DNA from: Hypanus sabinus
Lineage: Eukaryota
Length of the DNA: 64,000 nucleotides
Direction: 5' to 3'
Assembly: GCF_030144855.1 (NCBI RefSeq)
Contig: NC_082714.1
Coordinates: forward strand, 127,596,001 to 127,660,000
The first letter of the stretch is position 1; every line of letters begins with the position of its first letter. Shown piece by piece: positions 1 to 53,110 of this stretch. The notes under the pieces are model-generated. The model worked only from the letters and a program-made list of their open reading frames with translations, did no database searches and was not told the DNA's origin. A program made the position numbers and the translations under genes.

Positions 1-2
1 GG

Positions 3-2000
3 CAGCCGGACCCGTTAAAGATTCGAGCCTTAGTCCAGTGTGGCGACAAGCTGGATGCATGGCTGGGGGATGGGGACATCTGGCTGGATAGTGACGGCGG
101 GGGGGTGCCCGAGGAGCCAAGGTCCCTCAACCACCCTTCCCCCTTCTCACCCGAGCTCCAACATGCCCGACCCGTCACCACGCGGTCCCAGGTTCACCGC
201 AGGGAGGAAGGGAACGAGGGGGAGACGGATGGACCTTCCCCTAGTCACTCTGAGGCCACGGAGACCCAGGACTTCTCCCCCAAGGAGCTGACCCAGTTGG
301 CGGATCGGTACCGCCAACGGCCAGGCGAGCACCTCGCCGCCTAGCTGCTCCGGCTGTGGGACGAGGGGGGGCCCAACCTCAGCCTCTCCCATCAGGAGGC
401 AAGTGCCCTGGGAAGCCTCTCCCATCAGGAGACAAGCGGCCTGGGAAGCCTCTCCCATCAGGAGGCAAGCGGCCTGGGAAGCCTCTCCCATCAGGAGGCA
501 AGCAGCCTGGGAAGCCTCTCCCATCAGGAGGCAAGCGGCCTGGGAAGCCTCTCCCATCAGGAGACAAGTGCCCTGGGAAGCCTCTCCCATCAGGAGACAA
601 GTGGCCTGGGAAGCCTCTCCCATTAGGAGGCAAGCGGCCTGGGAAGCCTCTCCCGTCAGGAGACAAGCGGCCTGGGAAGCCTCTCCCATCAGGAGACAAG
701 CGGCCTGGGAAGCCTCTCCCATCAGGAGGCAAGCGGCCTGGGAAGCCTCTCCCATCAGGAGACAAGCGCCCTGGGAAGCCTCTCCCATCAGGAGGCAAGC
801 GGCCTGGGAAGCCTCTCCCATCAGGAGGCAAGCGCCCTGGGAAGCCTCTCCCATCAGGAGGCAAGCGGCCTGGGAAGCCTCTCCCATCAGGAGGCAAGCG
901 TCCTGGGAAGCCTCTCCCATCAGGAGGCAAGCGGCCTGGGAAGCCTCTCCCATCAGGAGGCAAGCGGCCTGGGAAGCCTCTCCCATCAGGAGACAAGCGG
1001 CCTGGGAAGCCTCTCCCATCAGGAGGCAAGCGGCCTGGGAAGCCTCTCCCATCAGGAGGCAAGCGGCCTGGGAAGCCTCTCCCATCAGGAGGCAAGCGGC
1101 CTGGGAAGCCTCTCCCATCAGGAGGCAAGCGGCCTGGGAAGCCTCTCCCATCAGGAGGCAAGCGGCCTGGGAAGCCTCTCTGAGCAGCAGAGCATAAACA
1201 ATGCGCTGCGGGCACCAGAAGCAGAAATCCGCGACGGCACAACCCTGTGGGATCGGGTAGTGACCACAGTACGAGCTCGCTATCCCACACTTCTGGAGTG
1301 GGATCTATACGGGCGCCCGCAATGGGGTACGGTCAGTGAGGGCACCCGGGTTATCAGGGAATGGGCACTGGTCAACGGCATCTATCAAGGTGGCTGCGTC
1401 CGCAACTTCCTTGAAAACACACGAGTGACCGGTGCCCTAGGAGGATACTTGGTCACTACAGTGCGCCCCGATCTGAAGTCGGTAATCCTGGCCCTCATGG
1501 CACCAGCCAGCGGTAGGATCGTACGGGATGCCATCACCCTCCTGGAGGGATTAGAATATATGCAGAGGGGGGCACCTACGCAGGTCCAGAAGACCGAGTC
1601 AAGGGCCCTAGACACTATCCCTCTCAGATATACACGCAGGCAGCTGTACATGGACCTGCTGCGTGCAGGGGTGGATCATAACCAGATAGATGGCATCCCC
1701 ACCCCCAACCTATATGCCCTGTGGAAGGAGCATTGCAGGGGGAAGATTACTTACAAAAAGACCACCAGACCCGATGCCCACAGCCCCCAGACCGCCAGGC
1801 CAGACCATGCCCACACCGAGCCACCCTCCGCGCCTCCCTTACCTGAAACTGTCTGGAAGGCCCTCGAAGCAGAACTCAGACGGCTCGTCAGGCAGGAAAT
1901 GTCCCACCTCCACCAGCATAGTGCCTCACCCCTGGCGTGGCAGCCCTCTTCCCCCCCTGTCGCATTTGCTCTCTCACCCTTTCCTGCCCGGGGGACCTGA
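3..2000 (+). pseudogene. gag: ERV-L-type gag (stops at 342-344 and ~624, in-frame 33-bp array)
   Basis: One frame reads KIRALV..W..DGDIWLD, DFSPKELTQLADRYRQRPGEHLAA*LLRLWDEGGPNLSL, then runs through the array into ORF 1260-2000. These match HERV-L/MuERV-L Gag motifs as remembered (KVRALIG..W.GDVWED; YRQKPGE..WILRVWDNGG). Confidence 0.85.
381..1180 (+). repeat. 33-bp tandem array, ~24 copies, in gag (SLSHQEASGLG per unit in the gag frame)
   Basis: Unit gcctctcccatcaggaggcaagcggcctgggaa; AGCCTCTC present at both boundaries. Confidence 0.97.
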
Positions 2001-3902
2001 GGCCACATATACCCGTCACAGTACAGTGAGGAAAGGGAAACACACAGAGGTGGACCTGAGGCCACATATACCCGTCACAGTACAGTGAGGAAAGGGAAGC
2101 ACACAGAGGTGGACCTGAGGCCACATATACCCGTCACAGTACATTGGAGAAAGGGAAACAGACAGAGGTGGACCTGAGGCCACATATACCCGTCACAGTA
2201 CATCGGGGAAAGGGAAACACACAGAGGTGGACCTGAGGCCACATGTACCCGTCACAGTACATTGGAGAAAGGGAAACAGACAGAGGTGGACCTGAGGCCA
2301 CATATACCCGTCACAGTACATCGGGGAAAGGGAAACACACAGAGGTGGACCTGAGGCCACATGTACCCGTCACAGTACATTGGGGAAAGGGAAGCACAGA
2401 GGTGGACCTGAGGCCACATATACCCGTCACAGTACACTGGGGAAAGGGAAACACACAGAGGTGGACCTGAGGCCACATATACCCGTCACAGTACATTGGG
2501 GAAAGGGAAACACACAGAGGTGGACCTGAGGCCACATATACCCGTCACAGTACACTGGGGAAAGGGAAACACACAGAGGTGGACGGCGCTTGTCGACACA
2601 GGCACCCAGCACATGATTATCCCAGGCAATCCTGCCTTATGGAGGGGTACGGACATGCAGACAGAGGGACTGGGGGGCTCCCTGTTACCAGCTAGGGAGG
2701 TCACCCTTCGCCTAGCCATAGGCAACCATTCCCCCAGACGTGTACAAGTCCTTATTGCCTCCTCCCCGGAATGTATCCTCAGGATCAATGTTTTAAAGGG
2801 ACAATCACTTGAAACAAACAGGGGCAAGTTCACCTTCGGCATCGCGCGAGCCACTATTGTCGTCGGGGCGGCTAAGTGGGAGCCAATTGCTATTCCCCCC
2901 CTCCAAGATCATCTGTAACAGTCAGTACAGAGTGCCGGGGGGGGGGGGGGCGCCAAGAAATCTCAGACTTCATTCAAGCCCTGTTACGGGAGGGAATTAT
3001 TAGAACCGCTGCCTCGCCTTTCAATAGCCCCATTTGGCCCGTCCGTAAGAGGAACGGCTCCCGGCGGATGACAGTTGATTATAGGCAATTGAACAAGGCT
3101 GCACCCCCCACCTCCGCCACTGTACCTGACGTTGTCACCCTTGTTGCAGACATCGCAGGCCGTCCCCACAAACCCTGGTACGCTGTTGTCGATTTAGCGA
3201 ATGCATTTTTCTCGATTCCCCTGCACTCAGATAGCCAAGACCAGTTTGCCTTTACTTGGGATAGCTGACAATACACATGTAATCGCCTGCCCCATGGCTA
3301 CATTCACAGCCCCACAATTTGCCGTGGCCTTGTCTCCCGCGATTTACACAACATCCAATTCCCGCCGGAGATTTCGATTGCACATTATATAGACGATATT
3401 CTTCTCCAAGGCCCTTCTGAGACCATTGTGTCACATGCTAATCGAATCCCTCAGGGGTCGGGGCTGGGCCATTAATATGGAAAAGATACAGGACCCCAGC
3501 CAAGGTGTCATTTTCCTTGGAGTACAATGGAACTCCAGGCACAGAAGCATACCCGATGCTGCCAAAAATAAAATTTTAAATTTTGCTGTCCCTTCAAATA
3601 AAACTGACACAGAGATTCGTGGGGCTCCTGGGCTATTGGCTGCAGCATATACCCCACTTGACCATGTTTCTCCGTCCACTCTATAGGATCTCCAGGAAAA
3701 AATTCAAATTTCTTTGGGGGCCAGCGGAACAGGCTGCCTTTGATACGGCGAAACTAGCGGTGGAACAAGCCATGCCACTTTCTTCCTGCCTGGCGGGTCT
3801 GCCTTTTGAGTTACAGGTCTCAGCGAGTGAGACGGTTGCCGAGTGGAGCCTCTGGCAGAAGACCCCAGGGCGTAGAGTCCCCCTCGGTTTCTGGACTAAG
3901 TC
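1991..3902 (+). pseudogene. pol: pro-pol: aspartic protease, reverse transcriptase, RNase H start; frameshifted, integrase missing
   Basis: DLRPHIPVTVHWGKGN..ALVDTG (ERV-L-like protease), SPFNSPIWPVRK..RMTVDYRQLN, VDLANAFFSIP, QFAFTW, HYIDDILL (~3381-3404), PFELQV..WSLWQ..PLGFW. Confidence 0.92.
1993..2584 (+). repeat. 59-bp tandem array, 10 copies (one 57 bp), at the protease N-terminus
   Basis: Unit ggacctgaggccacatatacccgtcacagtacattggggaaagggaaacacacagaggt, starting at 1993, 2052, 2111 ... 2522; GGAC at both boundaries. Confidence 0.97.
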
Positions 3903-5888
3903 CCCACCCTCAGAGTTATTCCACAGCCACTGAGTAGACCTAACGAATGCTGGTGCAGACTCCGCAATGTGCACACTTCTAACTTTTCCGTTGGTCACAG
4001 CAACTGTCAGTGAAACTGGTACCTTGGTGCCCCAGTGACCACTGCCGACGATGTCGCCAAGCTGCGAGCTCCCTGGACTCTAAACAGGACCCAGTGGATC
4101 TGCGGCCACCACGCCTACCCGTGGTTCCCCACGAGCTGGTACAGCTGCTGCTTTCCAGCATATGTGGTGCCCTTCATCCACCCTCTGAATGGCCTTGGGG
4201 AGCATCCAGCCTACAGTGGCCACCGGGACAAGAGGGCCATTACAGAGGCAGAGAGGTTCTGGGTGATAGCCGTTCCCAGTTATGGTACGGCCCGGCTGTC
4301 CCTGGAGGTGATCCAGATGACCAGTGTGCTCGAGACTCTGGCCAACGAGACGGCAGTGACACTGCAACACACGGAGGATGGTACGGCCCGGCTGTCCCTG
4401 GAGGTGATCCAGATGACCAGTGTGCTCGAGACTCTGGCCAACGAGATGGCAGTGACACTGCAACACACGGAGGATGGTACGGCCCGGCTGTCCCGGGAGG
4501 TGATCCAGATGACCAGTGTGCTCGAGACTCTGGCCAACGAGACGGCAGTGACACTGCAACACACGGAGGATGGTCCGGCCCGGCTGTCCCGGGAGGTGAT
4601 CCAGATGGCCAGTGTGCTCGAGACTCTGGCCAACGAGACGGCAGTGGCACTGTAACACACGGAGGATGGTCCGGCCCGGCTGTCCCGGGAGGTGATCCAG
4701 ATGGCCAGTGTGCTCGAGACTCTGGCCAACGAGACGGCAGTGACACTACAACACACGGAGGATGGTACGGCCCGGCTGTCCCGGGAGGTGATCCAGATGA
4801 CCAGTGTGCTCGAGACTCTGGCCAACGAGACGGCAGTGACACTGCAACACACGGAGGATGGTACGGCCCGGCTGTCCCGGGAGGTGATCCAGATGACCAG
4901 TGTGCCCGAGACTCTGGCCAACCAGACGGCAGTGACACTGCAACACACGGAGGATGGTCCGGCCCGGCTGTCCCGGGAGGTGATCCAGATGACCAGTGTG
5001 CTCGAGACTCTGGCCAACCAGACGGCAGTGACACTGCAACACACGGAGGATGGTACGGCCCGGCTGTCCCGGGAGGTGATCCAGATGACCAGTGTGCTCG
5101 AGACTCTGGCCAACGAGACGGCAGTGACACTGCAACACACGGAGGATGGTACGGCCCGGCTGTCCCGGGAGGTGATCCAGATGACCAGTGTGCTCGAGAC
5201 TCTGGCCAACGAGACGGCAGTGACACTGCAACACACGGAGGATGGTACGGCCCGGCTGTCCCGGGAGGTGATCCAGATGACCAGTGTGCTCGAGACTCTG
5301 GCCAACGAGACGGCAGTGGCACTGCAACACACGGAGGATGGTACGGCCCGGCTGTCCCGGGAGGTGATCCAGATGACCAGTGTGCTCGAGACTCTGGCCA
5401 ACGAGACGGCAGTGGCCCTACAACACACGGAGGATGGTACGGCCCGGCTGTCCCGGGAGGTGATCCAGATGACCAGTGTGCTCGAGACTCTGGCCAACGA
5501 GACGGCAGTGACACTACAACACACGGAGGATGCCCTCACCCAAACGGCGGCAGAACTGACAGCTGTCAGGATGGTCGCCCTGCAGAACCGAATGGCACTG
5601 GACTACCTACTCGCTGCTGATGGTGGAACGTGGGCAGTGGTTGGTAAGGAATGCTGTACCTTTATCCCTGATGAGTCCAGCAACATCACTCACTTGGCCG
5701 CTCACATTCAGGACTCGGTGGCTAAAATTCAAAAATCAAGGGACCAGCTCCTCCAGCACAACACCTCATGGGGCAATTGGTGGCAGTTTAGGTCCCTAGG
5801 GGGGTGGTGGGAAACTGTCATTCACCGGTCCATCGCACTTATTCTTGTAATCATAGCCATTTCTATACTACGTTGCGCATGCAGCTGA
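3903..5888 (+). pseudogene. env: env: C-terminal SU and TM (gamma-type) with 96-bp array; stops at ~4011 and 4653
   Basis: Furin site RDKR, fusion peptide AITEAERFWVIAVPSYG, ISD LQNRMALDYLLA, degenerate CX6CC (GGTWAVVGKECC), hydrophobic anchor SIALILVIIAISIL. Confidence 0.92.
4282..5532 (+). repeat. 96-bp in-frame tandem array, 13 copies, in env TM heptad region (GTARLSREVIQMTSVLETLANETAVTLQHTED)
   Basis: Units start at 4282, 4378 ... and end at ATG 5530-5532; (5530-4282)/96 = 13. Confidence 0.97.
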
Positions 5889-6000
5889 TTAAGAGTGTCT
5901 GCATTTACTTAGCTGCTCAAAATTGGTTATTTCTGGTATGTGCGATTTTGTTTCACCCTCATGTGTGTTGGCTATGTGGTGCGTCTTCCGAGGAGTGGAG

Positions 6001-6484
6001 TGTATCCAGAGATACTGGCCACGTGACAGATGCACTACCACCTGGCTGGTCGGAGGACACACCACATGCCAATCAACATTTGGTTGCTCCCAACTAATCA
6101 ATGCACACCTAAATTATTGGTCACCTTAATTGGATTATCTCGCCCGGCCCCATGCTATAAAAGGTGAGACTTGTCTCTGGTTTGGTCTCTCTTACAGACC
6201 ACCTCATTGGAGGTAAGTGCATTGATTTATGTTTGGGAAGGTTTATCGTTTGTCCTGGTAAGGGAGCCGCAGCTATCCAAGGTCAAGGGGGATAGCTGTT
6301 GTAGTGCTTTTCCCTTGTTCTTTGTAGGTGTAACCGTACCCTGTCCCCACACCACTTCCTGTGTATTGTAGTTGCTTGTGTTGACCTGACTTCCCCTTTA
6401 ATAATAAATTCCTTATTATTAAAACTGTGTGTGTCCAGGCCTCTACTGTTGAGACTCAAGGAACCAGTTATTTCCATCACAACA
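6001..6484 (+). promoter_or_regulatory. 3' LTR of the ERV
   Basis: Purine tract GAGGAGTGGAG just before TGTA at 6001; CCAAT 6069; TATAAAA 6156; AATAAA 6403; ends ...CACAACA at ~6484 before a (CTAT)n tract. Confidence 0.8.
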
Positions 6485-6499
6485 CTATCTATCTATCTA

Positions 6500-6832
6500 T
6501 TTATTTCCCCTTTTCTCTCTTTTTTCTCTCTCTGTGCCCATCACTCTGCCTGCTCTCCATCTTCCTCTGGTGCTCCCCTCCCCCTTTCTTTCTCCCTAGG
6601 CCTCCCATCCCATGATCCTCTCCCTTCTCCAGCTCTGTATCCCTTTTGCCAATCAACTTTACAGCTCTTAGCTTTGTCCCTCCCCCTCCTGTATTCTTCT
6701 ATAATTTCAGATCTCCCCCTCCCCCTCCCAATTTCAAATCTCTTACTATCTGTTCTTTCAGTTAGTCTTGACAAAGGGTCTCGACCCAAAACACCAACTG
6801 TACTTCTTCCTATAATGCTGCCTGGCCTGTTG
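6500..6832 (+). mobile_element. Penelope-like 3' end/pLTR fragment
   Basis: Pyrimidine-rich tract, degenerate hammerhead-like core (gtcttgacaaagggtctcgacccaaaac) and atgctgcctggcctg tail; same family as 16120-16510 and 21100-21485. Confidence 0.65.
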
Positions 6833-7651
6833 CATTCCAAGGAAAATAATATGGTGACTTCTTGCTGTAGAAAAGCACTAACTGTGAAAAGATATCATTA
6901 AGGTATCTAAAGTAATCATAGGTCTAATATGATTGATAGGCTGTTTATGTTGTACAGATCCAGGTGATAGGAAATGGGCACTAAACTAGTTTGTGGTCTA
7001 GAAATTGTATGTATATAACAATGTGTGCAAGGGGCATTAGACAGATGATCCATGACAATTTTATGCACAGCCTCCCAAAATGGAATATTCATTCCTGTAG
7101 AAGATGCCGGGAATTGCCTGCAGGCCAAACAAAAGCAGTAAAAAAAGTATTTTCTTGTGATCATGATTTTCTTGCATTTCAGAGAGTAGAAATCACTGAA
7201 AATGTGATTTGGAAATAGGATTGTGGATGGGGTGAAGCAAAAAGAGGAGATGATCAGGTAAGGGTGGAAGCAGCTGGAGTTATCAAGGGAAGTTTAGTTC
7301 TGAGGTCTATTGAGTAATGGTTCAGAGAGACAATCAGAGGATGGGGAGATGATTAATGGTTCAGGAGATAATGGCAGAGAGATTAGAGTGATCATCATGA
7401 AACAGTAAAATTGAATTGAGCTGTTTGAGTGAGGCCCATCTATTCGAGAGCCTCATCTGCATGAAATCTGTGCAAATCTGATGAAGACTCAGCTACCCTG
7501 TGCGGTTTCTTTGGCTATCTCAGAGGGGACTTAAGTCAATCATGTGCTGTGGGACTGTAGTCACAAAAGGTGATATTATTATGGTCACCATAACAGCATC
7601 TAGCTTTTTGTTTCATGAATTTGCTAAATTGGATATAAATACCTGAGGTAA

Positions 7652-8190
7652 TATAACCATATAACAATTACAGCACGGAAACAGGCCATCTTGGCCTTTC
7701 CAGTCCGTGCCAAACGCTTACTCTCACCTAGTCCCACTGGCCTGCACTCCGCCCATAACCCTCCATTCCTTTCCTGTCAATGTACCAATCCAATTTTACT
7801 TTAAATGACAATACCAAACCTGCCTCTGCCACTTCTACTGGAAGCTCGTTCCACACAGCTACCACTCTCTGAGTAAAGAAATTTCCCCCTCGTGTTACTC
7901 TTAAACTTTTGCCCCCAACTCTCAACTTATGTCCTCTTGTTTGAATCTCCCCTACACTCAATGGAAAAAGCCAATCCACGTCAACTCTATCTATCCCCCT
8001 CATAATTTTAAATACCTCTATCAAGTCCCCCCTCAATCTCCTACACTCCAAAGAATAAAGACCTGACTTGTTCAGCCTTTCCCTGTAACTTAGGTGCTGA
8101 AACCCAGGTAACATTCTAGTAAATCTTCTCAGTACTGGCTATTTTGTTGACATCTTTCCTATAATTCGGTGACCAGAACTGAACACAATA
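7652..8190 (-). mobile_element. CR1 LINE 3' fragment
   Basis: ORF 7728-8114 (YRERLNK.GLYSLE.RRLRGDLIEVFKI, FFTQRVV..WN.LP). Nearly identical to 46390-46745 plus 51612-51720. Confidence 0.93.
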
Positions 8191-9380
8191 TGAAGAAGTT
8201 CCTTCAGGTTGTCATAGCTGGTGGGGTGGGGGGTGGGGTAGTGGGATTAAGCTCCCACTACATATTAAATGCTCTCAATGCTGTGTATCTCAAACAGCCA
8301 CTGACAACCAAGTCCAGCTCCTGACCTTCATGTATAGCTTAGCTAGGAAGCCTAATGAAACCCTTTCTATTGACAAGAGAAGGGGCAAAGGCTGTTTGCT
8401 GGCGCATTAAAACCAGTCACTCTGGGCTGACAGCTCATCTGGGGTGAGAAGAAGGACTCTGATCGCAAACTTTCGCTGCCTTGTAGCTATACCCGCTCCT
8501 GGGAGAGGCTTCAGGATTAAATCCTGAGGAAATATTCAGAGCTGGAGTCCCCAAGGCAGTCCTATATTGAGTGTAATGCTGACTGGCAACTCCTGTGGTG
8601 CCACTGGTGCAAAACTGTTTTGGTCTCTGTCGTTCCTTTTGATTCATGATTTGTGTGGAGATGGAGGAGCGAGCTAAATGGGCAATAGCTTGCTCACCAT
8701 ATCATACTTCCCTGGCTTACTGTCTAGTCACATATTCGTACTGGCAGTCTACTGGCTAGGCAGCTAGGACGCAACATCCATGGCTAACCCTGACCAATGG
8801 AGGGCCTACTGTAAAAAGAAGTATACTCATGTCTCCGGATCATGAGACCGGACCTCTGGGTTACTGATCAAATGAATTATCTACTGCAAGAAATCTACAT
8901 CATTGAAGTAGAAAGCTCAGCACTATAACTACCTTTTTTCCATATCTCAGTTCAGCAGATGCTGTAAAGTTTCATAATGGAACCATGAAGAAATATCCGA
9001 GCCTGATCATCATCTTCATTAGAAATCCAAAAGCAAGATGTGTCGAACACTTATTTAGATAGTAGTTGAATTGCTGCCTTGTGGTGTAAGCAATTCATTT
9101 TATTCCTTTTCACCTTCGCATGTGGCAGTCTGTCAATCCCTATAGAATCATAGTGCACTCTGAGCATATTTTATAAATTCACCATTATGAAAAGAAATCC
9201 ACATAAATTTCAAGGAAGCTGCCAAATAACAGGAATGCAGTTCCACATGGGTAAATCTCTGTCTGGCAAAATCAGTCTCTAGTTTAATTAATTCTTCCTG
9301 CTACATTCAGAAAGTTTGCAATGATTTGTAAATTAGCCTCCAGAGAAAGGCGAAGCAAGCTGTTCCCTACCTGTCTGGAA

Positions 9381-26209: not shown

Positions 26210-26436
26210 TAAAAACACAAAATGCTGGCAGAACTCAGCAGGCCAGACAGCATCTATGGGAGGAGGTAGTGACGACGTTTCGGGCCGAAACCCTTCATCA
26301 GGAGTGAAGTAGCTTGGTTACTCGGTAACTTGGTTACTTCACTCCTGATGAAGGGTTTCGGCCCGAAACGTCATCACTACCTCCTTCCATAGATGCTGTC
26401 TGGCCTGCTGAGTTCTGCCAGCATTTTGTGTTTTTA
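26210..26436. repeat. ~102-bp inverted repeat of a Penelope-like pLTR segment with hammerhead-ribozyme cores
   Basis: 26210-26311 is the reverse complement of 26335-26436 with 2 mismatches; CTGATGA-AGGGTTTCGGCCC-GAAACGTC at 26345-26372. Confidence 0.9.
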
Positions 26437-40485: not shown

Positions 40486-41169
40486 TAACACATTCATAAT
40501 ATCAACCAGCAGCTGCCTGCCCCACTACTGTAAGCTAGGAAGTGCTAGCTGGGATGCTGTAGCATTTGTTGAGAGTCATCTAAGTTGGACTACTGCTAAA
40601 TAATAATTCTTACTAAGATAATACTTTTGGTATAACTTGACTACATGAGATAGGAACTGTAATGGTATTGGGTTTGCTGACCATGAAGTTCTAAACTGAA
40701 ACAAAAGCATTAAACCGTATTGGATATCAATAGCCTCGAGCACTTTCACTAAAGGGAGAATGTATTGTAACTACCCAATCTTCAAAGACCAGTTTACTTC
40801 CTTGTTTATTCTTCATAGTGAGTTTTGCAGCCAATACCCGTTAAATAACCCTTTGTCTTATACTGCTCCTCTTGAGCAGTAAGAGAGGATTCTATGAATA
40901 GAGCATACTACAAACCTGTGTGTTTAACTTCCAGCTGATTACAACGTTCCAGTTTCATTTCATGAACTGAAGATTGGATTCTGTTTATGATCAGAAGCTA
41001 CACAATGCTAGTTGGAAGTTTGCTTGCATCTGTTTGATCTTCACAAGGTGCAGCTGTTGTGTTTAGAAAGGCATGATAGCACTAGGCCGTGGAAAGGCCT
41101 ATTGTCAGAAGCTATTGTTTATAGTTAGGTTCTGGATTTGGCCATGAGCACACACCGTCTGCTTCATAG

Positions 41170-41742
41170 TTGAGAGTATCATTAACTGGGCGCTGGTGTT
41201 CTGTACTGGATGTCAGATGTGGGATGTTCGGGAGACTCCCAGCCTCCTGGATAGACACATCTGTGTCAGGTGCATCGAGCTACATCTCCATAGGGACTGG
41301 GTTAGGGAATTGGAGAGGCAGTTTGATGACCTTCGTCTGGTCAGGGAAAGTGAGGAGGTGATAGAAAGGAGCTATAGGCAGATAGTCACACCAGGGCCTC
41401 AGGAGACAGATAAGTGGGTAACAGTCAGGAGAGGGAAGGGCAAGAGTCAGATACTAGAGAGTACTCCTGTGGCTGTCACTCTTAGCAATAAATACTCCTG
41501 TTTGAGTACTGTTGGGGGCAACGACCTACCTGGGGGGAAGCAACAGTGGCTGTGCCTCTGGCACGGTCTGGCCCTGTGTCTCAGAAGGGTAGGGAAAGGA
41601 AGAGGATGGCAGCAGTGATAGGGGACTCTATAGTTAGGGGGTCAGACAGGCGATTCTGTGGATGCAGGAAAGAAACACAGACGGTAGTTTGCCTGCCAGG
41701 TGCCAGGGTCCAGAATGTTTCTGATCATGTCCAAGGTATCCT
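41170..41742 (+). mobile_element. Outer CR1, ORF1 5' part (Cys finger plus SGNH esterase start)
   Basis: CTGC...CVRC, VIGDSIVRG, VVCLPGARV; broken after DHVQGIL. Confidence 0.85.
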
Positions 41743-42785
41743 GATATGACTACTCCTGCCAAAGGTGCATCCAGTGCAGCACCTGAGAAACTTGTTAGGG
41801 AGCTGGAGCTGGATGAACTTCGGATCATTTGGGAGGCAGAGGCAGAAATAGGCAGGAGTTTCAGGGAGATAGTCACCCCTAGGAGTCAGGAGACAGGTAG
41901 TTGCGTGACTGTCAGGAGAGGGAAGGGGAATAGACAGGAAGAGCAGAGCACCCCTGTGGCCATTCCCATCAACAAGTATACCATTTTGGATACTGTTGGT
42001 GGGGACGACCTACCAGGGACAAGTTGCAGTGGTTGCGTCTCTGGCACCGAGACTGGACCCTCTGCTCAGAAGGGAAGGAGGGAAAAGAGGAGAGCAGTAG
42101 TGATAGGGGATTCGATAGTTAGGGGGACAGATAGGAGGTCCTGTGGAAGATATTGAGAATCCCGGATGGTCTGTTGCCTCCCTGGTGCCAGGGTCCCCGA
42201 TATCTTGGATCGAGTTCTCAGTATTCTCAAGAGGGAGGGTGAGCAGAGGGATGTCATGGTCCATGTAGGGACCAATGACGTGGGTAGGAAGAGTGAGGGG
42301 ATCCTGAAAGGTGAGTTTAGGGAGCTAGGTGCCAAGTTAAAGGGCAGGACCTCCAGGATAGCAATCTCAGGATCGCTACCAGTGCCACGTGCAGGTGGGT
42401 TTAGAAATAGTAAGATAGTGCAGATCAACACATGGCTGAAGACATGGTGCAGGAGGGAGGGCTTCAGATTTATAGATAATTGGGCAGTTTTCTAGGGCAG
42501 TTGGGACCTGTTCCGGCGGGATGGTTTACATCTGAACTGGAGGGGGACAAATATTATTGCAGGTAGGTTTGCTAGAGAGGCTCCAGTGGATTTAAACTAG
42601 ATATGGGGGGGGGGGGGGGGGGAGGGAACCAGAGTGTAGAACAGATGTTCGGGAGAAGGAGGAAAAAGAAGACAGTAAAGTTCTTTATGCTGTTAGAGAT
42701 AAACAGAGAGCAAGAGGTGGAGAATTTCTTAAATGCATTTATTTTAATGCTAGGAGCATTGTAAGAAAGATGGATGAGCTTAGAG

Positions 42786-44035
42786 CAGGGGTGGGCAAAC
42801 TTTTTGACTTGTGGGTCACAAAGGGTTCTAAAATTTGACAGGGGGGGCCGGAGCAGGAGCAGATGGACGGAGTGTTTTGGTAATACACCTCATAAGAGAA
42901 AATAAAATATCATGGGATATGTAGAAAACATGTGCTTTAATTTCAATTGAAAATGAACAAATGCATTACAACAAAATATCTGTCTTTGAAGTCCCATGGT
43001 ATTTAGCTATTTATTGAAATGTCTTTTAAAACACTGAAAATTAAATTAATAAAATACAGCTTTTTTTAATAGTAACAGTTATTATTTTAAAGCACTGAAA
43101 ATTCTGTTATCCTTCAAGATATTATCATCATCACTCTCATCCTGACTGTCTTTATTTCAAAAACGGTAGGAGATGCAGGTCTACTTGTCCTGCTCCTTCT
43201 TATTCAATTGTCCCCTGTGCCAAAACTCAACAATGACCAGCACAAAGACAGAACAGTGGCCAGTATGCGGAGCGCGTTATTTGATCTGGAGCGCATTTTT
43301 TATTTTGAGAACGTATGTGCACCTGCGCACTACTCATGTCCATCACTTAACAGAAATGACATGTAACATGTAAGGCTTATTGAAAAAAAAATTTTCAAAT
43401 GCATTTTTTACATAACACAACGAAGAAACTTATTTTTAATTTCAGTGGGAACAGTGTTGTTGGTCTCCCTTTTTAGCCAGCGCATCAAAGACTGGATTTA
43501 GTTTTGTTGTGGCGATTCTCAGGATGGATCTGAGGTGTTGGTCAGTTAACTTGGATCTGTGGCTGGCTTTGTTGATGTTCATGACGCTGAACGCCTGTTA
43601 ACACAAATAGTGAAGCGCAAATGTGGAGTAATACGCTGCACCTCAACAAAGGTCAATGTGTAGCGGTGTGCTACATGCAGCGCTAAAATTACGACACGGA
43701 GTCAGTAACTGCAGTCGAAGAAAAAAACTTTATTCGAAATCCCCAGCCTCACTTTTAAGCCTCCCTCAACCTGCCCCCCTGGGCAGAGGCTCCAAAGCTC
43801 TGTGCTCGCAAATCCCCGCAGGCTACCTCCCTTAGCCAGAACGCTGGCTAATTGTGAGCCGGTTCGGATGTGCCAGGAAATGGGTCGCCACAAATGTATA
43901 TAGAGTGCGTCATCTATTGGGAAAACGCCAGAATTGCGGGGAAAAAACGTTAACAAGGTTTATTAATATAATTTCATCAAGTTCTGCGGGCCGGATTAAA
44001 AAGCTTAACGGGCCGCATATGTTTGCCCATGCCTG
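42786..44035 (-). mobile_element. Non-autonomous hAT (Buster/SPIN/Charlie type)
   Basis: TIRs caggggtgggcaaac and gtttgcccatgcctg; 8-bp TSD GCTTAGAG (42778-42785, 44036-44043); minus-strand transposase C-terminus YLC*QAFSVMNINKASHRSKLTDQHLRSILRIATT..QQHCSH at 43442-43610. Confidence 0.92.
43659..43892 (-). mobile_element. Solo LTR inside the hAT element
   Basis: TGTAGCG...CGCCACA ends, 4-bp TSD AATG on both sides, minus-strand AATAAA at ~43730. Confidence 0.75.
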
Positions 44036-46746
44036 GCTTAGAGCATGGACTGATACCTGGAAATATGATGTTGTAGCAATTAGTGAAACATGGTTGCAGG
44101 AGGGGTGTGATTGGCAACTAAATATTCTTGGATTTCATTGCTTCAGGTGTGATAGAATCAGAGGGACTAGAGGGGGAGGTGTTGAGTTGCTTGTCAGAGA
44201 AAATATTACAGCGGTGCTCTGGCAGGATAGATTTGAGGGCTTATCTAGGGAGGCTATTTGGGTGGAATTGAGGAATGGGAAATGTGTAGTAACACTTATA
44301 GGGGTGTATTATAGACCACCTAATGGGGAGCAAGAATTGGAGGAGCAAATTTGCAAGGAGATAGCAGATATTTGTAGTAAGCACAGGGTTGTGATTGTGG
44401 GAGATTAATTTTCCACATATAGACTGGGAAGCCCATACTGTAAAAGGTTTGGATGGTTTGGAGTTTGTAAAATGTATGCAGGATAGTTTTTTGCAGCAAT
44501 ACGTAGAGGTACCAACTAGAGAAGGGGAAGTGTTGGACCTTCTGTTAGGGAATGAAATAGGTCAGGTGACAAAGGTATGTGTTGGGGAACACTTCGGGTC
44601 CAGTGATCACAATACCATTAATTTCAATATAATTATGAAGAAGGATAGGACTGGACCCAGGGTTGAGATTTTTAATTGGAGAAAGGCTAACTTTGAAGTG
44701 ATACGAAAGAATCTAGAAGGAGTGGATTGGGACAATTTGTTTTATGGGAAGGATGTAATAGAGAAATGGCGGTCATTTAAAGGTAAAATTTTGAGGGTAC
44801 AGAATCTTTATGTTCCTGTTAGTTAGAAAGGAAAGGTTAAAAGTTTGAGAGAGCCATGGTTTCAAGGGATATTGGAAACTTGGTTAGGAGAAAGAGATAT
44901 CTACAATAAATATAGGCAGCATGGAGTAAATGAGGTGCTCGAGGAATATAAAGAATGTAAGAAGAATCTTAAGAAAGAAATTAGAAAAGCTAAAAGAAGA
45001 TACGAGGTTGCTTTGGCAAGTAAGGTGAAAATAAGTTCAAAGGGTTTCTACAATTATATTAATAGCAAAAGGATAATGAGGGATATAATTGGTCCATTAG
45101 AGAATCAGAGTGGACAGCTATGTGTGGAGCCAAAAGAGATGGGGGAGATTTTGAACAATTTCTTTTCTTTGGTATTCATTAAGGAGAAGGATATTAAATT
45201 GTGTAAGGTAAGAGAAACAAGTAGGGAAGTTATGGAAAATATGACAATTGAAGAGGAGGAAGTACTGGGGCTTGTAAGGAATATAAAAGTGGATAAATCT
45301 CTGGGTCCTGACAGGATATTCCCTAGGAACTTGAGAGAGGTTAGTGTAGAAATAGCAGGGGCTCTGACAGAAATACTTCAAATGTCATTAGAAATGGGGA
45401 TGGTGCCGGAGGATTGGTGCATTGCTCATTTGGTTCCATTGTTTAAAAAGGGTTCTAAGAGTTAACCTAGCAATTATAGGCCTGTCAGTTTGACGTCAGT
45501 GGTGGGTAAATTAATAGAAAGTATTCTTAGAGATGGTACATATAATTATCTGGATAAACAGGGTCTGATTAGGAATAGTCGGCATGGATTTGTGCATGAA
45601 AGGTCATGTTTGACAAATCTTATTGAAGTTTTTGAAGAGATTACGAGGAAAGTTGATGAGGGTAAAGCAGTGGATGTTGTCTATATGGACTTTAGTAGGG
45701 CCTTTGACAAGGTTCTGCACAGAAGGTTAGTTAGGAAGGTTCAATCATTAGGTATTAATATTGAAGTAGTAAAATGGATTCAACAGTGGCTGGATGGGAG
45801 ATGCCAGAGAGTAGTGGTGGATAACTGTTTGTCAGGTTGGAGGCTGGTGACTAGTGGTGTGCCTCAGGGATCTGTACTGGGTCCATTGTTGTTTGTCATA
45901 TACATTAATGATCTGGATGATGGCATGGTAAATTGGATTAGTACCTATGCAGATGTTATTAGGGTAGGTGGCGTTGTGGATAATGAAGTAGGTTTTCAAA
46001 CTTTACAGAGTGATTTAGGCCAGTTAGAAGAGTGGGCTGAAAGATGGCAGATGGAGTTTAATGCTGATAAGTGTGAGGTGCTAAATTTTGGTAGGAATAA
46101 TCTAAATAGGACATACATGGTAAATGGTAGGGCATTGAAGAATGCAGTAGAACAGAGTGATCTAGGAATAATGGTGCATAGTTCCCTGAAGGTGGAATCT
46201 CATGTGGATAGGGTGGTGAAGAAAGCTTTTGGTATGTTGGTCTTTATGAATCAGAGCATTGAGTATAGGACTCGGGATGTAAAAATTGTACAAGGTATTG
46301 ATAAGGCCGAATTTGGAGTATTGGGTACAGTTCTGGTCACCGAATTATAGGAAAGATGTCAACAAAATAGAGAGAGTACAGAGAAGATTTACTAGAATGT
46401 TACCTGGGTTTCAGCACCTAAGTTACAGGGAAAGATTGAATAAGTTAGTTCTTTATTCTTTGGAGTGCAGAAGGTCGAGGGGGGACTTGATAGAGGTATT
46501 TAAAATTATGAGGGGGATAGAGAGTTGACGTGGATAGGCTTTTTCCATTGAGTGTAGGGGAGATTCAAACAAGAGGACATGAGTTGAAACTTAGGGGGCA
46601 GAAGTTTAAGGCTAACATGAGGGGGAATTTCTTTACTCAGAGAGTGGTAGCTGTGTGGAATGAGCTTCCAGTAGAAGTGGTAGAGGCAGGTTTGGTATTG
46701 TCATTTAAAGCAAAATTGGATAGGTATATGGACAGGAAAGGAATGG

Positions 46747-49700
46747 TGTTACAAGGATGAGGCAGGAAGAATGAACCCAAGTGCAGGACTCTGACACGGA
46801 GGCAGAATCTCCATAGCGAGCGCAGATTCGGGACCAGGCTGAGTCAGGACTAGGGAGGCTTGATTCACGAAGAGATACAGGATTGAAGACTTGGAGCAAG
46901 GTTCCTCTCTTTCTGAGAGTCGACCAACAATCTGGCAAGGGCTGACCGGAGCTGTCGGGGTCTTATCCTCCAGTGGCTAATGGAAACCAGGTGCTGGTGA
47001 TTGAGAGGAATTGGGAAAGATTGGGAATCAAGTGTGGAGATTAAGGACCAATTAGGGAAGAAAGGGAAAAGGTGGGAAATGCCAGCCAGGACCATGAGAG
47101 TAACCCTCCTCAAAGGGAACCTCCCGGCGACTTTCCCGGCTTGTCGGGATGGTTCCTGGATGAGGGAAGGGAGCATGGAACCCAGAAACGCTCTTCTGGC
47201 CCGTACCCTTCCCAATCCACCAAGTGCTGGAATCCTTTGCCCCTTCGTCGTACATCCAATAGTCGTCGGACGATGAAGGCTGGATGGTTGTCAATGATTC
47301 AGGTTGGTGGGGGAGTATCGGGTGGTGGACACAAGGGGCTGGTCGAGACTTGTTTAACTTGGGAAACGTGGAAGGTAGGGTGGATGGGTAGGGAACTTGG
47401 TATCTTCAGTCAGACCGCTGTAGGATTGATAACCCGTTCGACCGTGAGCGGACCTAGGAAGCAAGGAGTGAGTTTTCTATGCTCATTCTTGAGCAGAATG
47501 TCTTTGGAGGAGAGCCATACCAAATGCCCAGGTTGGTACTCCGGTGCTGGGGTCCTGTGTTGGTCGGCTGTCTCCTTGAAGCGATCTGCTGAATGGGCTA
47601 GGGCCGTGCGTGTCTCCTCCCAGATCCTGCGGCACTGGTCAATATGATCGCGGACAGATGGTACAGCAATCTCTGCTTCCTGCACGGGAAACAACGGGGA
47701 CTGGTACCCCAGTGAGCACTCGAATGGGGATTTTCCTATGGCTGAACTCATAAGGGAGTTCTGGGCATACTCGACCCATGGGAGTTGGTCACTCCAGCTG
47801 GCTGGGTTGTTTTTGGTCACACAACGCAACGTCGCTTCCAGGTTTTGGTTAGCCCGCTCCATCTGTCCATTAGTCTGGGGGTGGAAGCCGGATGATAGAC
47901 TGACTTATGCACCCAAGGCTTGGCAGAATGCTCTCCACACCTTGGAGACGAACTGGGGACCTCGGTCCGAGTCGATGTCGGCGGGGATTCTGTGGAGGCG
48001 GAAGACGTGGCAGACAAGGAGGTCAGCGGTCTCTTGGGCCAAGGGGAGTTTAGGTAGGCCTACAGAATGCACAGCCTTAGAAAATCTGTCCACCAAGGTG
48101 AGGATGGTTGTATTCCCTAAGGATTTGGGCAGACCTGTAACAAAGTCCAGGACGATGTGCCACCATGGGCGGCCAGGAACAGGCAGGGGCCGAAGCAATC
48201 CCGCAGGCGGCCAATGCGAGGCCTTTCCCCGGGCACAAGTGGGGCAGGCCACGACGTAGGAGCGGGTGTCTGCCTCCATGGAGGGCCACCAAAAATGTCT
48301 TCTCAGGAGTGCTAGGGTTCGATTAGTTCAGGTGTGGCAGGCAAATCGAGACGTATGCCCCCACTGGAGGACCTGAGATCGGACGCGTTCAGGCACATAG
48401 GGGTGGTCGTTGGGTCCCTTACCTGGGTCTGGGTCATCTCACTGGGTTTCTTTTACCACGGACTCGATCTCCCAGGTGAGGGAAGCCACCACACAGGATG
48501 GGGTGGGGATGGTCATTTCTGGACTGGAGGTGTCCTCCCTGGAGTCATATTGGTGGGAGAGCGCGTCTGGCTTTCCGTTCTTGGACCCGGGGCGGTAAAA
48601 TTGAATCGCCCAAAGAATAATGCCCAACGGGCCTGGCGGGAGTTCAGGTGCTTGGCGGTTTGAATGTACCCCAGGTTCTTGTGATCTGTCCAGACAATGA
48701 ATGGGTGCTTTGCCCCCTCCAGCCAGTGCCTCCATTCTTCCAATGCCAGTTTGACCGCCAATAGTTCACGATTTCCCATGTCATAATTTTGTTCCGCGGG
48801 GAACAATCGGCGGGAAACGAAAGCACAGGTGTGAACCTTTCCGTCTGTACCCGACTGTTGGGACAGGACTGCTCCTACTCTGAAGTGTCCACCTCCACGA
48901 TGAATTGTCGGGACGGGTCCGGATGGATCAGGTGGTGAAGCGTCTCTTTAAGTTAGTGAATGCTGCTTCCGCTTCAGCGTCCCAAGAAAAGGGTGTGGAG
49001 GGCGAGGTAAGCCGGGTGAGGGGGGCGGCCACCCGACTGTGGTCCCTGATAAAACAGCAGTAGAAGTTTGTGAACCCCAGGAACCACTGGAGTTGCTTGC
49101 GGGTCGTGGGCCTAGGCCATTTCTCCACCACACGGATCTTCTCAGGGCCTGCTCTCACCTGCCCGCCTAGAAAGCTGACCGAAGGGACATGAAACTCACA
49201 TTCCTCCGCCCTCACAAACAGTTGGTTTTCCCACAGCCTCTGAAGGACTCTACGGACATGACGAACATGTTCTTGCAGGCTGAGGGAGAAAAAAAAAGTC
49301 AGATTGTCGTCTAGATAGACGAACACAAAATGGTTAATGAAGTTCCTTAACACATCGTTAATGAAGGCCTGGAAAATGGCGGGGGCATTCGTAAGGCCAA
49401 ATGGCATAACAATATATTCAAAATGGCCCAGAGGGGTGTTAAAGGCTGTCTTCCACTCATCCCCTTCTCGTATCCTAACAGGGTGGTAGGCATTCCGTAG
49501 GTCCAGCTTGGAAAAGATGGTCATTCCGTGTAGCGGGTCAAAAGCTGAACTAATGAGAGGTAAGGGGTTCTAGTTCTTAACTGTGATATTGTTCAAGCCT
49601 CGATAATCGACGCAGGGGTAACGCGATCCAACTTTCTTCTCCACAAAGAAGAACCCGGCGGCCACAGGGGAGGAAGAGAGGAGCTTCGAGGGACTCGCCC

Positions 49701-51606
49701 AGGTATTTCTCCATGGCCTCCCTTTCTGGTCGCGATAAATTATAGAGGCAACTGGCGGGCAGCGGGGCCCCAGGGAGGTCATCGGTGGCACAGTCATAAG
49801 GGCGGTGCGGAGGCAGGGCAAGTGCTCGTTGTTTGCTGAACACCTGTCCCAGGTCGTGGTATTCAGCAGGTACCCGGGAGAGGTCAAAGTCTTCAGAGAC
49901 CGATAGAGTCACCGGAGCCTCCCTGGGAGGTGGGGCCGACCGCAGACAGTGGGAGTGACATGCCAGACCACCTGGCCATCCTCCCGGTGGTCTAGTCGAT
50001 CTGGGGATTGTGGTGAACCAGCCTTGGGTATCCTAGTACCACCGGGGCTCGAGGCGAGTGGATTTGATTGAATCTAGACTTCTCTTGGTGGTTACCAGAC
50101 AGGACTAGTGTTAAGGGTAGAGTGGGGTGGGTTACCCCAGCCAGCAGCCTACCGTCCAGACCCCGGGCCTCCACGGGGGTGGTGAGTGGTTCTCGAGGGA
50201 TTCCGGCCCGGGCGGCTACGTCTTCATCTGTCAGATCCCCCTCAGCACCGGAGTCTATCAAGGTAGCCAAGGACAGGGACTGTTGGTTGTAAGTTACCGT
50301 AGCTGGGATCTGCATCCGGGCTTGGGGAACTGAAGGGAGTGTCGTCTGATTCACCAGAACCGTTGAAGTGGGGGCAACACTAAGAGTGGACGGGGAGGAG
50401 AGGCTTGGCTGAAGATGGTAAGGTGGGCCGTAGGATGCCCCGAGGGGCGGGCCAACCGGCCTTCTAGAAGTCGGTTATCTAACCGGGTGGCTAGAGTGAT
50501 CAAAGTGTCCATGCCGTTCGCGTCATCCCTGGTTGCTAATTCATCTTTTACCTTGTCGGAGAGACCCCGTCAAAACACTTCCTGTAGTGCTTCGTCCTTC
50601 CACCCAGAGTCGGCTGCTAAAGTTCGGAACTCTACGGAGTATTTTGCTACGCTTCGCGAGCCCTGACGGAGAGTCAGAAGGTGCCTAGTGGCGTCCTTCC
50701 CACGAATGGGCTGTTCAAAGACCTTCCTCATTTCGGAGATGAAGGTAGAGAAGGAGGAACAGATCTCTAGCCTGTTGTCCCAGATTGCGGTGGCCCATGA
50801 TAAGGTATCCCCTCGTAACAGCCCTATGATGTACGCAATCTTTGATCTGTCCAAGCAGTACGTACGTGGCTGTTGCTCAAAAACCAGAGAGAACTGCAGT
50901 AAGAAAGCCCGGCACTTCCCTAGGTCCACGGTGTAGGGTTCTGGTTTGGGGACATACAGCTCTCGAGGGGGTCTTGTTCACGGTTCCAGGGGCACAGACA
51001 GTCCAGGTTGCCCGGATGGGTCGGCCGGAGTTCTCGGGGGTTGAGGCGGACCAAGGAAGACGGATAGCCAGTCCACCCACTCACTGACCTTCCCCACACT
51101 TGTGCTCAGCGTATGGAGGTGTTCCATAACTTCCCAGGAGAAATCAGTTGCGGGTGCCCAGCAACTGGTCCTGGCTGACGAGGGCCTGTTGCATGGGATC
51201 CGAGTCCACTCTGTTCATGGTTGGCTAGATTGTTCTGTTACCGGGACGTGGCAGGAAGAATGAACTCAAGTGCAGGACTCTGAGAGGATCCTGAGGCAGG
51301 ATCAGGAGGCAGAATCTCCGTAGCGAGCGCAGATTCGGGACTAGGCTGAGTCAGGACTAGGGAGGCTTGATTCACGAAGAGATACAGGGTTGAAGACTTG
51401 GAGCAAGGCTCCTCTCTTTCTGAGAGTCGACCAACAATCTGGCAAAGGCTGACCGGAGCTGTCGGGGTCTTATCCTCCGGTGGCTAATGGAAACCACGTG
51501 CTGGTGATTGAGAGGAATTGGGAAAGATTGGGAATCAAGTGTAGGGATTAAGGACCAATTAGGGAGGAAAGGAAAAAGGTGGGAAATGCCAGCCAGGACC
51601 ATGACA
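46747..51606 (-). mobile_element. Full-length decayed Gypsy LTR retrotransposon, Tf1/sushi chromovirus group
   Basis: LTRs 46747-47099 and 51236-51606; TSD AATGG. Gag (IAYIIGLLRG..LSWATAIW), protease LIDSGA, RT YLDD, RNase [13 protein letters not shown], integrase, chromodomain [15 protein letters not shown] at ~47175-47230. Confidence 0.96.
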
Positions 51607-51720
51607 AATGGAGGGTTATGGGCTGAGTGCGGGTCAGTGGGATTAGGTGAGAGTAAGCGTTCGGCACGGACTAGAAGGGCTGAGATGGCTTGTATTCGTG
51701 CTGTAATTGTTATATGGTTA

Positions 51721-52660
51721 TTAGTGGGAAGGAGAACAGCCAGAGGTCCTGGTACCAACAACTTATGTAGGAAAAGGGAGGAGGTCCTGAAAGAAGACTG
51801 TAGGGAGTTAGGAAGGAAGTTGAGAAGCAGGACCACAAAGGTAGTATTCTTGGGATTACTGCCTGTGCCATGTTACTGTGAGTATAGGAATAGAGTGAGG
51901 TGGAGGATAAATGCATGGCTGAGAGACTGGAGCAGGGGGCAAGGATTCAGATTTGTGGATCATTGGGACCTCTTTTGGGCCAGGCGTGACCTGTACAATA
52001 AGGATGGGTTGCACTTGAATCTGAGGGGACCAATATCCTAGCAGGGAGGTTTTCTATGAGTATTGGGGAGTGTTTAAACCAAAATTACTAGGGGGTGGGA
52101 ACCTAATGGAAGAAACAGAGGAAGAGGCACTTGGCTTACAAATAGAGAAAGCTTTTTGGCAGTGTGAGGAGGGGATAGCAGGTGATAAAGAAGGGATGCG
52201 CTCAGATTGATGGTTTGAGATGCATCTATTTTAATGCAAGGAATAACATGAACAAAGTTGATGAGCTTAGAACGTGGATCAATACTTGGAGCTATGATGC
52301 TGTGGCAATTGCTGAAAATTGGATGGTGCAGGGGCAGGAATGTCTACTTAGTATGCCAGGCCTTAGGCTTTAGATGTTTCAGAAAGGACAAAGAGGGGGT
52401 CAAAAGAGATGGGGGCATGGCACTGCTGATTAGAGATAGTGTCACAGCTGCAGAAAAGGGGGAAGTCATGGATGAATAGTCTACTGATTCTCTGTGGATG
52501 GAAGTTAGAAACAAGAAGGGGTCAATAACTCCTTCTAAAGATGGGGTGTTTCTTTATAGACCATCCAATAGTAATAGGGACATCAAGGAGCAGATAGGAA
52601 GACAGATTCTGGAACAGTGCAATAATAACAGGATTGTTGTGATGGGAGATTTTAATTCCC
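51721..52660 (+). mobile_element. Outer CR1 continued (ORF1 3' part, ORF2 endonuclease start)
   Basis: WEGEQPEV continues the ORF1 broken at 41742; DGLHLN; CIYFNARN..KVDEL; YRP; VVMGDFN. Confidence 0.85.
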
Positions 52661-52664
52661 TAAC

Positions 52665-53110
52665 CCAGCCCCTAAGGCACTTGCCTTATGAGAATAGGTT
52701 GAGTGAACTTGGCCTTTTCTCCTCGGAGGGACGGAGGATGAGAGGTGAGCTGATAGAGCTGTATAAGATGATGAGAGGCATTGATCGTGTGGATAGTCAG
52801 AGGCTTCTCTCCAGGCCTGAAATGACTAACACAAGAGGGCAGAGTTTTAAGGTGCTTGGGAGTAGGTACAGAGGAGATGTCAGGGTAAATTTTTTACGCA
52901 GAGAGTGGTGAGTGTGTGGAATGTACTGCCAGCGATGGTGGTGGAGCCGTATGCAATAGGGTCTTTAACAAGATGGTTGGATTGGTACATCGAGCTTAGG
53001 AAAATAGGGGGATATGGGTAACTGAGTAATTTCTAAAGTAAGTACATGTTCGGCACAGCATTGTGGGCCGAAGGACCTGCATTGTGCTGTAGGTTTTCTA
53101 TGCTTCTATT
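52665..53110 (+). mobile_element. CR1 3' fragment
   Basis: YENRLSELGLFS...RMRGELIELYK; (ttctatg) tail. Confidence 0.88.

Follow-up and report, generated by a model that had tools for sequence, protein, structure and literature searches.

The window analysed here is a 64,000-nucleotide stretch of the genome of the stingray Hypanus sabinus (RefSeq assembly GCF_030144855.1, contig NC_082714.1, positions 127,596,001 to 127,660,000 of the forward strand), and all coordinates below are counted from its first letter. Its left end is occupied by a defective endogenous retrovirus (ERV) that carries three long tandem arrays, in gag, around the start of the protease (pro) and in env. Tandem Repeats Finder (TRF) gave these arrays scores of 1474 (gag, 381-1180), 1058 (pro, 1993-2584) and 2369 (env, 4282-5532), and its copy numbers and unit lengths, listed below, confirmed the original prediction, made from the sequence alone, of three unrelated arrays of about 24 × 33, 10 × 59 and 13 × 96 bp. 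The window sequence contains no N.

A defective provirus and its three arrays

The visible part of the provirus consists of its 3' 6,484 bp and has the following layout:

1..380, + strand: 5' part of gag, truncated at the window edge; same frame as the downstream gag, no Pfam match, stop at 342-344
381..1180, + strand: gag array, 24.2 × 33 bp (TRF); in frame, unit of 11 amino acids (aa), stop in unit 8
1181..2000, + strand: 3' part of gag with a PSAP late motif (1824) and without a Cys-His box; stop at 1998-2000
1993..2584, + strand: array of the gag stop and protease N-terminus, 10.1 × 59 bp (TRF); one unit of 57 bp, frame not kept
2585..2918, + strand: protease core with DTG motif; Pfam RVP, E=0.0015, short of the curated cut-off
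2876..3899, + strand: fragmented reverse transcriptase (RT) and beginning of the RNase H-like region; Pfam RVT_1 and RT_RNaseH_2, YIDD at 3386
3897..3902, + strand: deletion junction; pol beyond this point, with integrase, is gone, as are some 127 aa at the N-terminus of Env
3900..4281, + strand: C-terminal part of the surface subunit (SU), furin site (4224) and start of the transmembrane subunit (TM), from motifs and the alignment of relatives; stop at 4011
4282..5532, + strand: env array, 13.0 × 96 bp (TRF); in frame, stop in unit 4
5533..5888, + strand: rest of a gamma-type TM; Pfam TLV_coat, E=3.6e-11, immunosuppressive domain (ISD, 5580) and membrane span, CX6CC region not intact
5990..6000, + strand: polypurine tract, from the sequence
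6001..6484, + strand: 3' long terminal repeat (LTR), 484 bp, TGT...ACA; TATAAA at 6156, AATAAA at 6403, then (CTAT)5

Of the 6,484 bp visible, 2,643 belong to the arrays, in agreement with the predicted 2.6 of 6.5 kb, but the 6.5 kb is a minimum length as the window's left edge falls inside gag and the 5' LTR and primer-binding site lie beyond it. The other three of the six TRF rows in the window score 55-73 with about two copies each, so the claim that the remaining 57 kb hold no comparable minisatellite stands; when the score was lowered to 30, TRF gave 55 rows, and in the 52 that are not the three arrays the period never exceeds 22 bp.

The closest named proteins come from stingrays, namely H. 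sabinus P0001 and P0003 and Hemitrygon akajei P0002, and the skate Amblyraja radiata P0004 is a more distant relative (49% identity in TM). Identity to P0001 is 88% over the gag and TM matches and 78% over the SU match; the 3' part of gag matches P0001 at 88% and pieces of P0002 at 81% aa identity. The U3 part of the LTR appears translated in the tail of P0003. A profile-free library search with Gag returned 17 matches, two of which are the named ray proteins, and a Gag search of Atlas gave no usable match. No relatives of the protease were found among 254 candidates or in the PDB, and none of the 10 open reading frame (ORF) pieces scanned had a Pfam match to integrase.

Several features are those of class III elements: the YIDD catalytic motif of RT, the lack of CX2CX4HX4C in any + frame together with the PSAP motif in Gag, and LTR ends of TGT (6001-6003) and ACA (6482-6484). 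The best PDB matches of the RT are that of murine leukaemia virus (MLV) followed by foamy virus RT, and these do not place the element in class III. The region after integrase, where a dUTPase would lie, was lost to the deletion at ~3899. Of the env features of XtERV-S of Xenopus, the furin site, an NxT glycan site within the array unit and the ISD are present, the CX6CC is not intact and the SU CXXC region is deleted. As described in PMC8278194, XtERV-S shares with the ray element a class III gag-pol combined with a class I env, the YIDD, DTG and PSAP motifs, the absence of a Cys-His box, a gamma-type TM with ISD and N-heptad glycan site, and TGT...ACA LTRs; unlike XtERV-S, the ray copy is defective and deleted and has its protease outside the gag frame. 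ERV-L is described in the same source as env-less, and the TLV_coat match thus rules out a strict ERV-L identity. Judged by its motifs, the element that carries the arrays is a class III provirus, now defective, with ERV-L/S-like gag-pol and gamma-type env; it is ERV-L-like but, having an env, not ERV-L.

The provirus is dead independently of its arrays. It has stops at 342 and 4011, the pol region at 2876..3899 contains one stop and several frame changes as well as a G14 run at 2937, and integrase and ~127 aa of Env are lost; the alignment of Amblyraja Env P0004 begins at its residue 128, which corresponds to position 3900. The G14 run (2937-2950) coincides with a change of frame near the beginning of RT; it is nothing unusual, as runs of 13-18 G or C are found at 16625, 17970, 42605 and 58910 as well. 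The proline-rich end of gag (1766-1820) contains, by eye, a degenerate two-copy motif of ~20 bp that is below the threshold of the repeat finder, and the (CTAT)5 run (6485-6504) directly adjoins the 3' LTR.

Seeds and stepwise growth

The units of the three arrays are bounded by short direct repeats, AGCCTCTC (8 bp, gag), GGAC (4 bp, pro) and ATG (3 bp, env), exactly as predicted; the gag repeat extends to an imperfect 14/18 match. The further claim that each unit is a piece of ordinary coding sequence needs amending for the pro unit, which covers the stop codon of gag (1998-2000) together with the N-terminus of the protease. The env unit encodes 32 aa from the end of the fusion peptide and the N-heptad with its NxT stutter glycan site. 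Among random duplication breakpoints placed in the non-array provirus, repeats of at least 8, 4 and 3 bp have probabilities of 1.6e-4, 0.020 and 0.058, and a summed length of at least 15 bp has a probability of 5e-6. As the end repeats are jointly far above those of random breakpoints, misalignment at microhomology probably started each array. The density of 8-bp seed pairs per kb is nevertheless no higher in the provirus (1.6) than in a nearby Gypsy element (2.2) or in host DNA (3.0), and the seeds thus explain where the units start but not why this element was chosen; microhomology density, similar in all three, was rejected as the cause. Two other candidate seeds were rejected as well: G-quadruplexes, for which G4Hunter scores are lower in the arrays than in the rest of the provirus, and hairpins, the fold energies of the units lying at the 10th, 94th and 13th percentile of the background.

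The env segment was present once in the relatives. The left flank with the first unit, and the last unit with the right flank, both align to P0001, and their overlap is a single unit (residues 200-231); P0004 aligns to the env flanks and units in the same way, and both proteins thus carry the segment once. An Env query that contained the array had three matches, none of them with repeats. In the protease, the last 59-bp unit is where the Pfam RVP alignment begins. The predicted single-unit state is thereby drawn from relatives for env, from the Pfam alignment for protease and from the reading frame only for gag. The original prediction had collapsing each array to one unit restore canonical ERV-L genes: for env this is borne out by the single unit of P0001 and P0004, but the element is not strict ERV-L and is also broken outside the arrays.

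Two observations concern the relation to P0001. In its gene model, gag connects to env at exactly the residue with which the provirus resumes after its deletion (3897-3902), and this common point could reflect a shared deleted subfamily, an orthologous insertion or a splice prediction. At position 77 of the env unit, units 4, 11 and 12 encode the residue of both H. sabinus proteins while the other 10 units differ, and the commoner variant may have taken over at a time when the array already existed. The pro (2048-2584) and env (4306-5532) units each carry an in-register AG|GT, by which transcripts or gene models could skip whole units.

As predicted, the units are near-identical, with mean pairwise differences of 3.8% (gag, all 24 units), 4.5% (pro, 9 of 10 units, the 57-bp unit being left out here and in the count of shared variants below) and 2.7% (env, all 13 units). 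The prediction also had them keeping their CpGs, but this is not special to the units: the observed/expected CpG ratio is about 0.6 in the proviral RT region and in the Gypsy element too. The variation consists of 17 transitions, 8 transversions and one 2-bp deletion, with the single gag CpG mutated on both strands, and it is extensively shared among units: 18 variant instances in gag represent only 7 distinct variants, 19 in env represent 10 and 14 in pro represent 8. When units were simulated as initially identical and mutating independently, with CpG sites weighted tenfold, so few distinct variants were seen in 132 (gag), 69 (env) and 2,051 (pro) of 200,000 draws. Four-gamete conflicts were found for three pairs of sites in gag and six in env and for none in pro. 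Blocks of units have been duplicated in pro (C-D-E-D and G-H-G, with higher-order blocks of 118 bp) and gag (I-C-J-C-K-C); together with the conflicts in gag and env, these indicate out-of-register duplication and exchange among already mutated units. Adjacent units are more alike than permuted ones in env (P=0.005) and not so in gag and pro.

The unit variants show no coding constraint: 3 are synonymous, 12 missense and 2 stops, whereas ~30% synonymous changes are expected under neutrality. The fact that the units share variants hierarchically, form higher-order blocks and lack coding constraint shows that the arrays grew in many steps. An adaptive repeat protein, such as a syncytin-like protein or a restriction factor, is ruled out by the neutral-like variants, the stops within the gag and env arrays and the truncated env. 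The arrays are neutral and without function, with no evident function for the host.

Diversity is higher towards the 5' end of all three arrays, as a comparison of their 5' and 3' halves shows (P=0.003, 0.035 and 0.26; combined P=0.002 one-sided and 0.009 two-sided for a pattern noticed post hoc). The distance between the units and their common source is 1.4-2.3%, and the density of singletons is similar across the three arrays (0.32-0.51%). The lineage of the provirus has accumulated 5-7 private aa changes in 115 TM columns, or by our own rough conversion ~2-3% neutral DNA change. These rough ages are compatible with expansion following integration, and they fit a start of the arrays near integration and turnover until recently.

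A matched control and the rival explanations

The window contains a second LTR element that serves as a control, about 40 kb from the provirus:

46747..51606, - strand: complete LTR element of the Gypsy type; 4.6% divergence between its LTRs, flanked by AATGG on either side, GC about 0.55, no array

It is 4.9 kb long and frameshifted, and has gag, protease, RT, RNase H, integrase and SH3. No array comparable to the three was found in the other 57.5 kb of the window, this element of similar size, age, GC and CpG included. Within the provirus, all three duplications reached at least 10 units, and no two-copy duplication was found elsewhere in it. A locus- or element-specific process is supported because the Gypsy element with equal seeds is without an array, there are no leftover dimers and three of three duplications grew long. 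As a single control, however, the Gypsy element is weak. The probability of such clustering within the window is about 0.04 when restricted to GC-rich DNA, 2.8e-4 against the whole window and about 0.012 for any location, all three values applying to a window itself chosen from a scan of many; the upper 95% array rate from the flanks gives P(≥3) of at most 0.0013. For comparison, in the sampled part of the HERV (human ERV) list of PMC3389668 (rows 1-90, 151-180 and 241-270 of 322 in supplementary table 3), 1 of the 150 HERV-internal rows has at least 10 copies and two more have 9.6-10, and dimers dominate the repeats derived from transposable elements (TEs) in human, as that source describes them.

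The remaining flanking sequence is made up of transposon remains. Pfam detected no host gene domain in 72 of the 102 flanking ORFs of at least 85 aa, only transposon domains. Pieces of a CR1/L2-type long interspersed element (LINE), with GDSL-like ORF1, endonuclease and RT, lie at 41100-46750 and 51607-53100 on either side of the Gypsy element; the sequence on both sides pairs with a single LINE piece at 7650-8200, and Gypsy thus inserted into the 3' end of a LINE. Further fragments include a Gypsy SH3 (29437) and a DDE_3 transposase (39053), and an inverted pair at 26210-26436 (112-bp arms, 95% alike, 3-bp spacer) overlaps the dispersed repeat family D5.

We consider it probable that microhomology-seeded duplications expanded stepwise in host DNA after integration, under a driver acting at the level of the locus. 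In the first step, three coding segments of 33-96 bp would each have gained one extra copy when strands misaligned at a short direct repeat. The agent was either RT, in an error-prone event that was possibly also behind the pol-env deletion, or the replication or repair machinery of the host shortly after integration. The dimers would then have grown within the chromosome by repeated out-of-register duplication and exchange between mutated units, giving the shared variants, block duplications and mosaic units, with the newer and more uniform units at the 3' end. Finally, a feature of the locus would have raised the expansion rate of all three arrays at once; its likeliest form would be break/repair in the germline or the stalling of forks, with the GC-rich insertion at the centre. 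Work on reverse transcription and on retroelement arrays is consistent with growth in DNA: SVA/LAVA variable number tandem repeats (VNTRs) are described as remodelling through microhomology at the DNA level and not in reverse transcription (PMC4432496), and for spleen necrosis virus (SNV), PMC3187697 reports that RT removed a direct repeat of 110 bp with a frequency of 41% per single cycle. Of the two mechanisms of the original prediction, expansion after integration fits best, but GC-richness of the island is not sufficient to explain it, as the Gypsy element is equally rich in GC, CpG and seeds. A still more specific proposal, that a cis-acting driver carried by the provirus or created at its insertion site turns any microhomology-seeded duplication within the provirus into a long one-directional array, for example through LTR-driven germline transcription or a recombination hotspot on an unmethylated GC-rich insert, is unlikely on present evidence.

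Several points weigh against chromosomal expansion at this locus. The flanks are AT-rich (GC 0.31-0.46 over 6.5-28 kb) and array-free, so that no regional hotspot is visible, and no G-quadruplex or hairpin property is common to the three units. The common polarity tracks the orientation of the element, as an element-borne process would also give. The relatives were compared as proteins only and "at this locus" is our inference, and the in-register AG|GT of the env unit means that the P0001 gene model could in principle skip units. The counts behind the age estimates are small. Among the variants of the units, CpG transitions number 5 on 22 against 12 on 166, a 3.1-fold excess, whereas local calibration pairs give 5.6-fold (the difference is not significant), and env has only 1 CpG event on 14 sites, fewer than a methylated chromosomal history predicts.

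Some of these points would also follow if the seeds or arrays had come from the parent copy of a deleted, non-autonomous subfamily and been retrotransposed, with copy number varying by locus as in HERV-H and the plant element Retand; such family-borne seeds with locus-variable growth, a third option outside the two of the original prediction, may be the explanation, though we think this doubtful. The large internal deletion, the resumption of P0001 at the same env residue, the array polarity following the element and the low CpG decay of the env units all agree with it. So do the precedents: the partly sampled PMC3389668 lists for HERV-H several unrelated multi-locus internal repeats (37-93 bp, 2 to 9.6 copies) and at least six human loci among the 150 HERV rows with two arrays close together in one element, and Retand arrays are reported to differ among copies of a cluster (PMC11963269). 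In a protein-level test for multi-locus repeats, however, P0001 had one env unit and no array-bearing protein was matched, though the host of the arrays may be unannotated. RT would also tend to delete near-identical repeats (PMC3187697), and most of the growth would still fall in a chromosomal parent copy.

The pre-integration mechanism of the original prediction, in which repeated template jumping in one RT event built the full arrays from one RNA or two co-packaged ones, did not hold up and is barely credible. RT does make duplications at 3-base microhomologies in HIV-1, according to PMC12115494, three duplications and one deletion in a single provirus resemble an error-prone event, and the lack of leftover dimers would suit it. 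Yet such an event predicts singleton variants and is rejected by the sharing of variants; a mosaic of two templates would require at least 16, 8 and 27 switches across the arrays, in total at least 51 in 2.6 kb, compared with 3-12 per whole HIV-1 genome (PMC3187697); and position 33 of the pro unit has three shared alleles, which two co-packaged RNAs cannot yield. This excludes a single RT event as the source of the growth and leaves it possible for the first dimers only. That three ordinary minisatellites arose by coincidence in a young GC-rich insertion, and were found by scanning many windows of a tandem-repeat-rich genome, is improbable: the clustering is only moderately significant (about 0.04) when limited to GC-rich DNA, and stingray genomes are described (bioRxiv 10.1101/2025.06.08.657570) as having many tandem-repeat-dominated regions that are associated with a high GC content and with the ends of chromosomes, but the bound from the flank rate, the shared polarity and similar singleton ages of the arrays, and the absence here of the dimers that dominate in human (PMC3389668) speak against it. 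An assembly or sequencing artefact is more improbable still. The copy number of near-identical arrays can be mis-assembled, but the variants are nearly all substitutions shared in ordered patterns, both strands of the gag CpG are hit and there is no N in the window. Moreover, assemblers usually collapse arrays and seldom invent them.

Relation to known systems and significance

The arrays resemble TE-derived minisatellites as described by the Haber and Louis model (Ahmed and Liang 2012, PMC3389668; review PMC6947457) in having a retroelement unit bounded by a short direct repeat and in growing locally and stepwise, the expansion being described as usually polar. Their head-to-tail units of 33, 59 and 96 bp fall within the 10-100 bp range of minisatellites, and stepwise local growth with variant units is what we found. 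Of the end repeats, that of gag (8 bp) fits the 5-10 bp of the model, whereas those of pro and env (4 and 3 bp) are shorter, if jointly above chance; a further difference is that the ray provirus has three separate arrays, all of at least 10 units and all from gag, pro or env coding sequence. HERV-H is similar as a single ERV family with unrelated internal repeats of 37-93 bp, two arrays per provirus at several loci and copy numbers that vary by locus, including one array of 62 bp × 23 (PMC3389668), but its repeats are multi-locus and mostly of 2-4 copies. No locus with three long arrays occurs among the 150 of 322 rows sampled, and the ray arrays are known from one locus and one haplotype. 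SVA/LAVA VNTRs (PMC4432496) also lie inside a retroelement and are remodelled at microhomologies in DNA, and in both these and Retand (PMC11963269) the internal arrays vary among copies; as the sources present them, however, they are fixed, largely non-coding domains of active families, whereas the ray arrays break coding genes. The motif duplications of HIV-1 (PMC12115494) likewise copy a short coding motif bounded by a 3-base repeat, but the examples given there add one copy and are tied to a gain in fitness, unlike the unselected 10-24 copies in the ray. ERV-derived minisatellites are thus already known, while the concentration, length and common polarity of these three arrays are unusual. 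Literature searches aimed at ERV arrays and at clustered or polar minisatellites, most subscription papers being outside their coverage, brought up no account of a provirus with three long arrays derived from coding sequence.

The locus is an unusually concentrated natural example of minisatellite birth, in which three pieces of the provirus's genes now stand in head-to-tail series of 10 to 24 copies. PMC3389668 poses as an open question what initiates minisatellites and what makes a few dimers expand when the majority never exceed two copies; its human survey was able to explain about 6% of the TE-derived cases. The value of the ray locus is that the pre-expansion state is knowable from relatives, three unit lengths occur within 5.2 kb and a matched retroelement without arrays lies 40 kb away. 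If paralogues of the provirus share the arrays, the interest would be modest, a cartilaginous fish then providing a parallel to HERV-H; if they are without arrays, the locus would separate the sequence seed from its chromosomal context. Should the cis-acting driver prove true, array-free identical paralogues would be built-in controls, and minisatellite birth would become testable across the loci of one ERV family.

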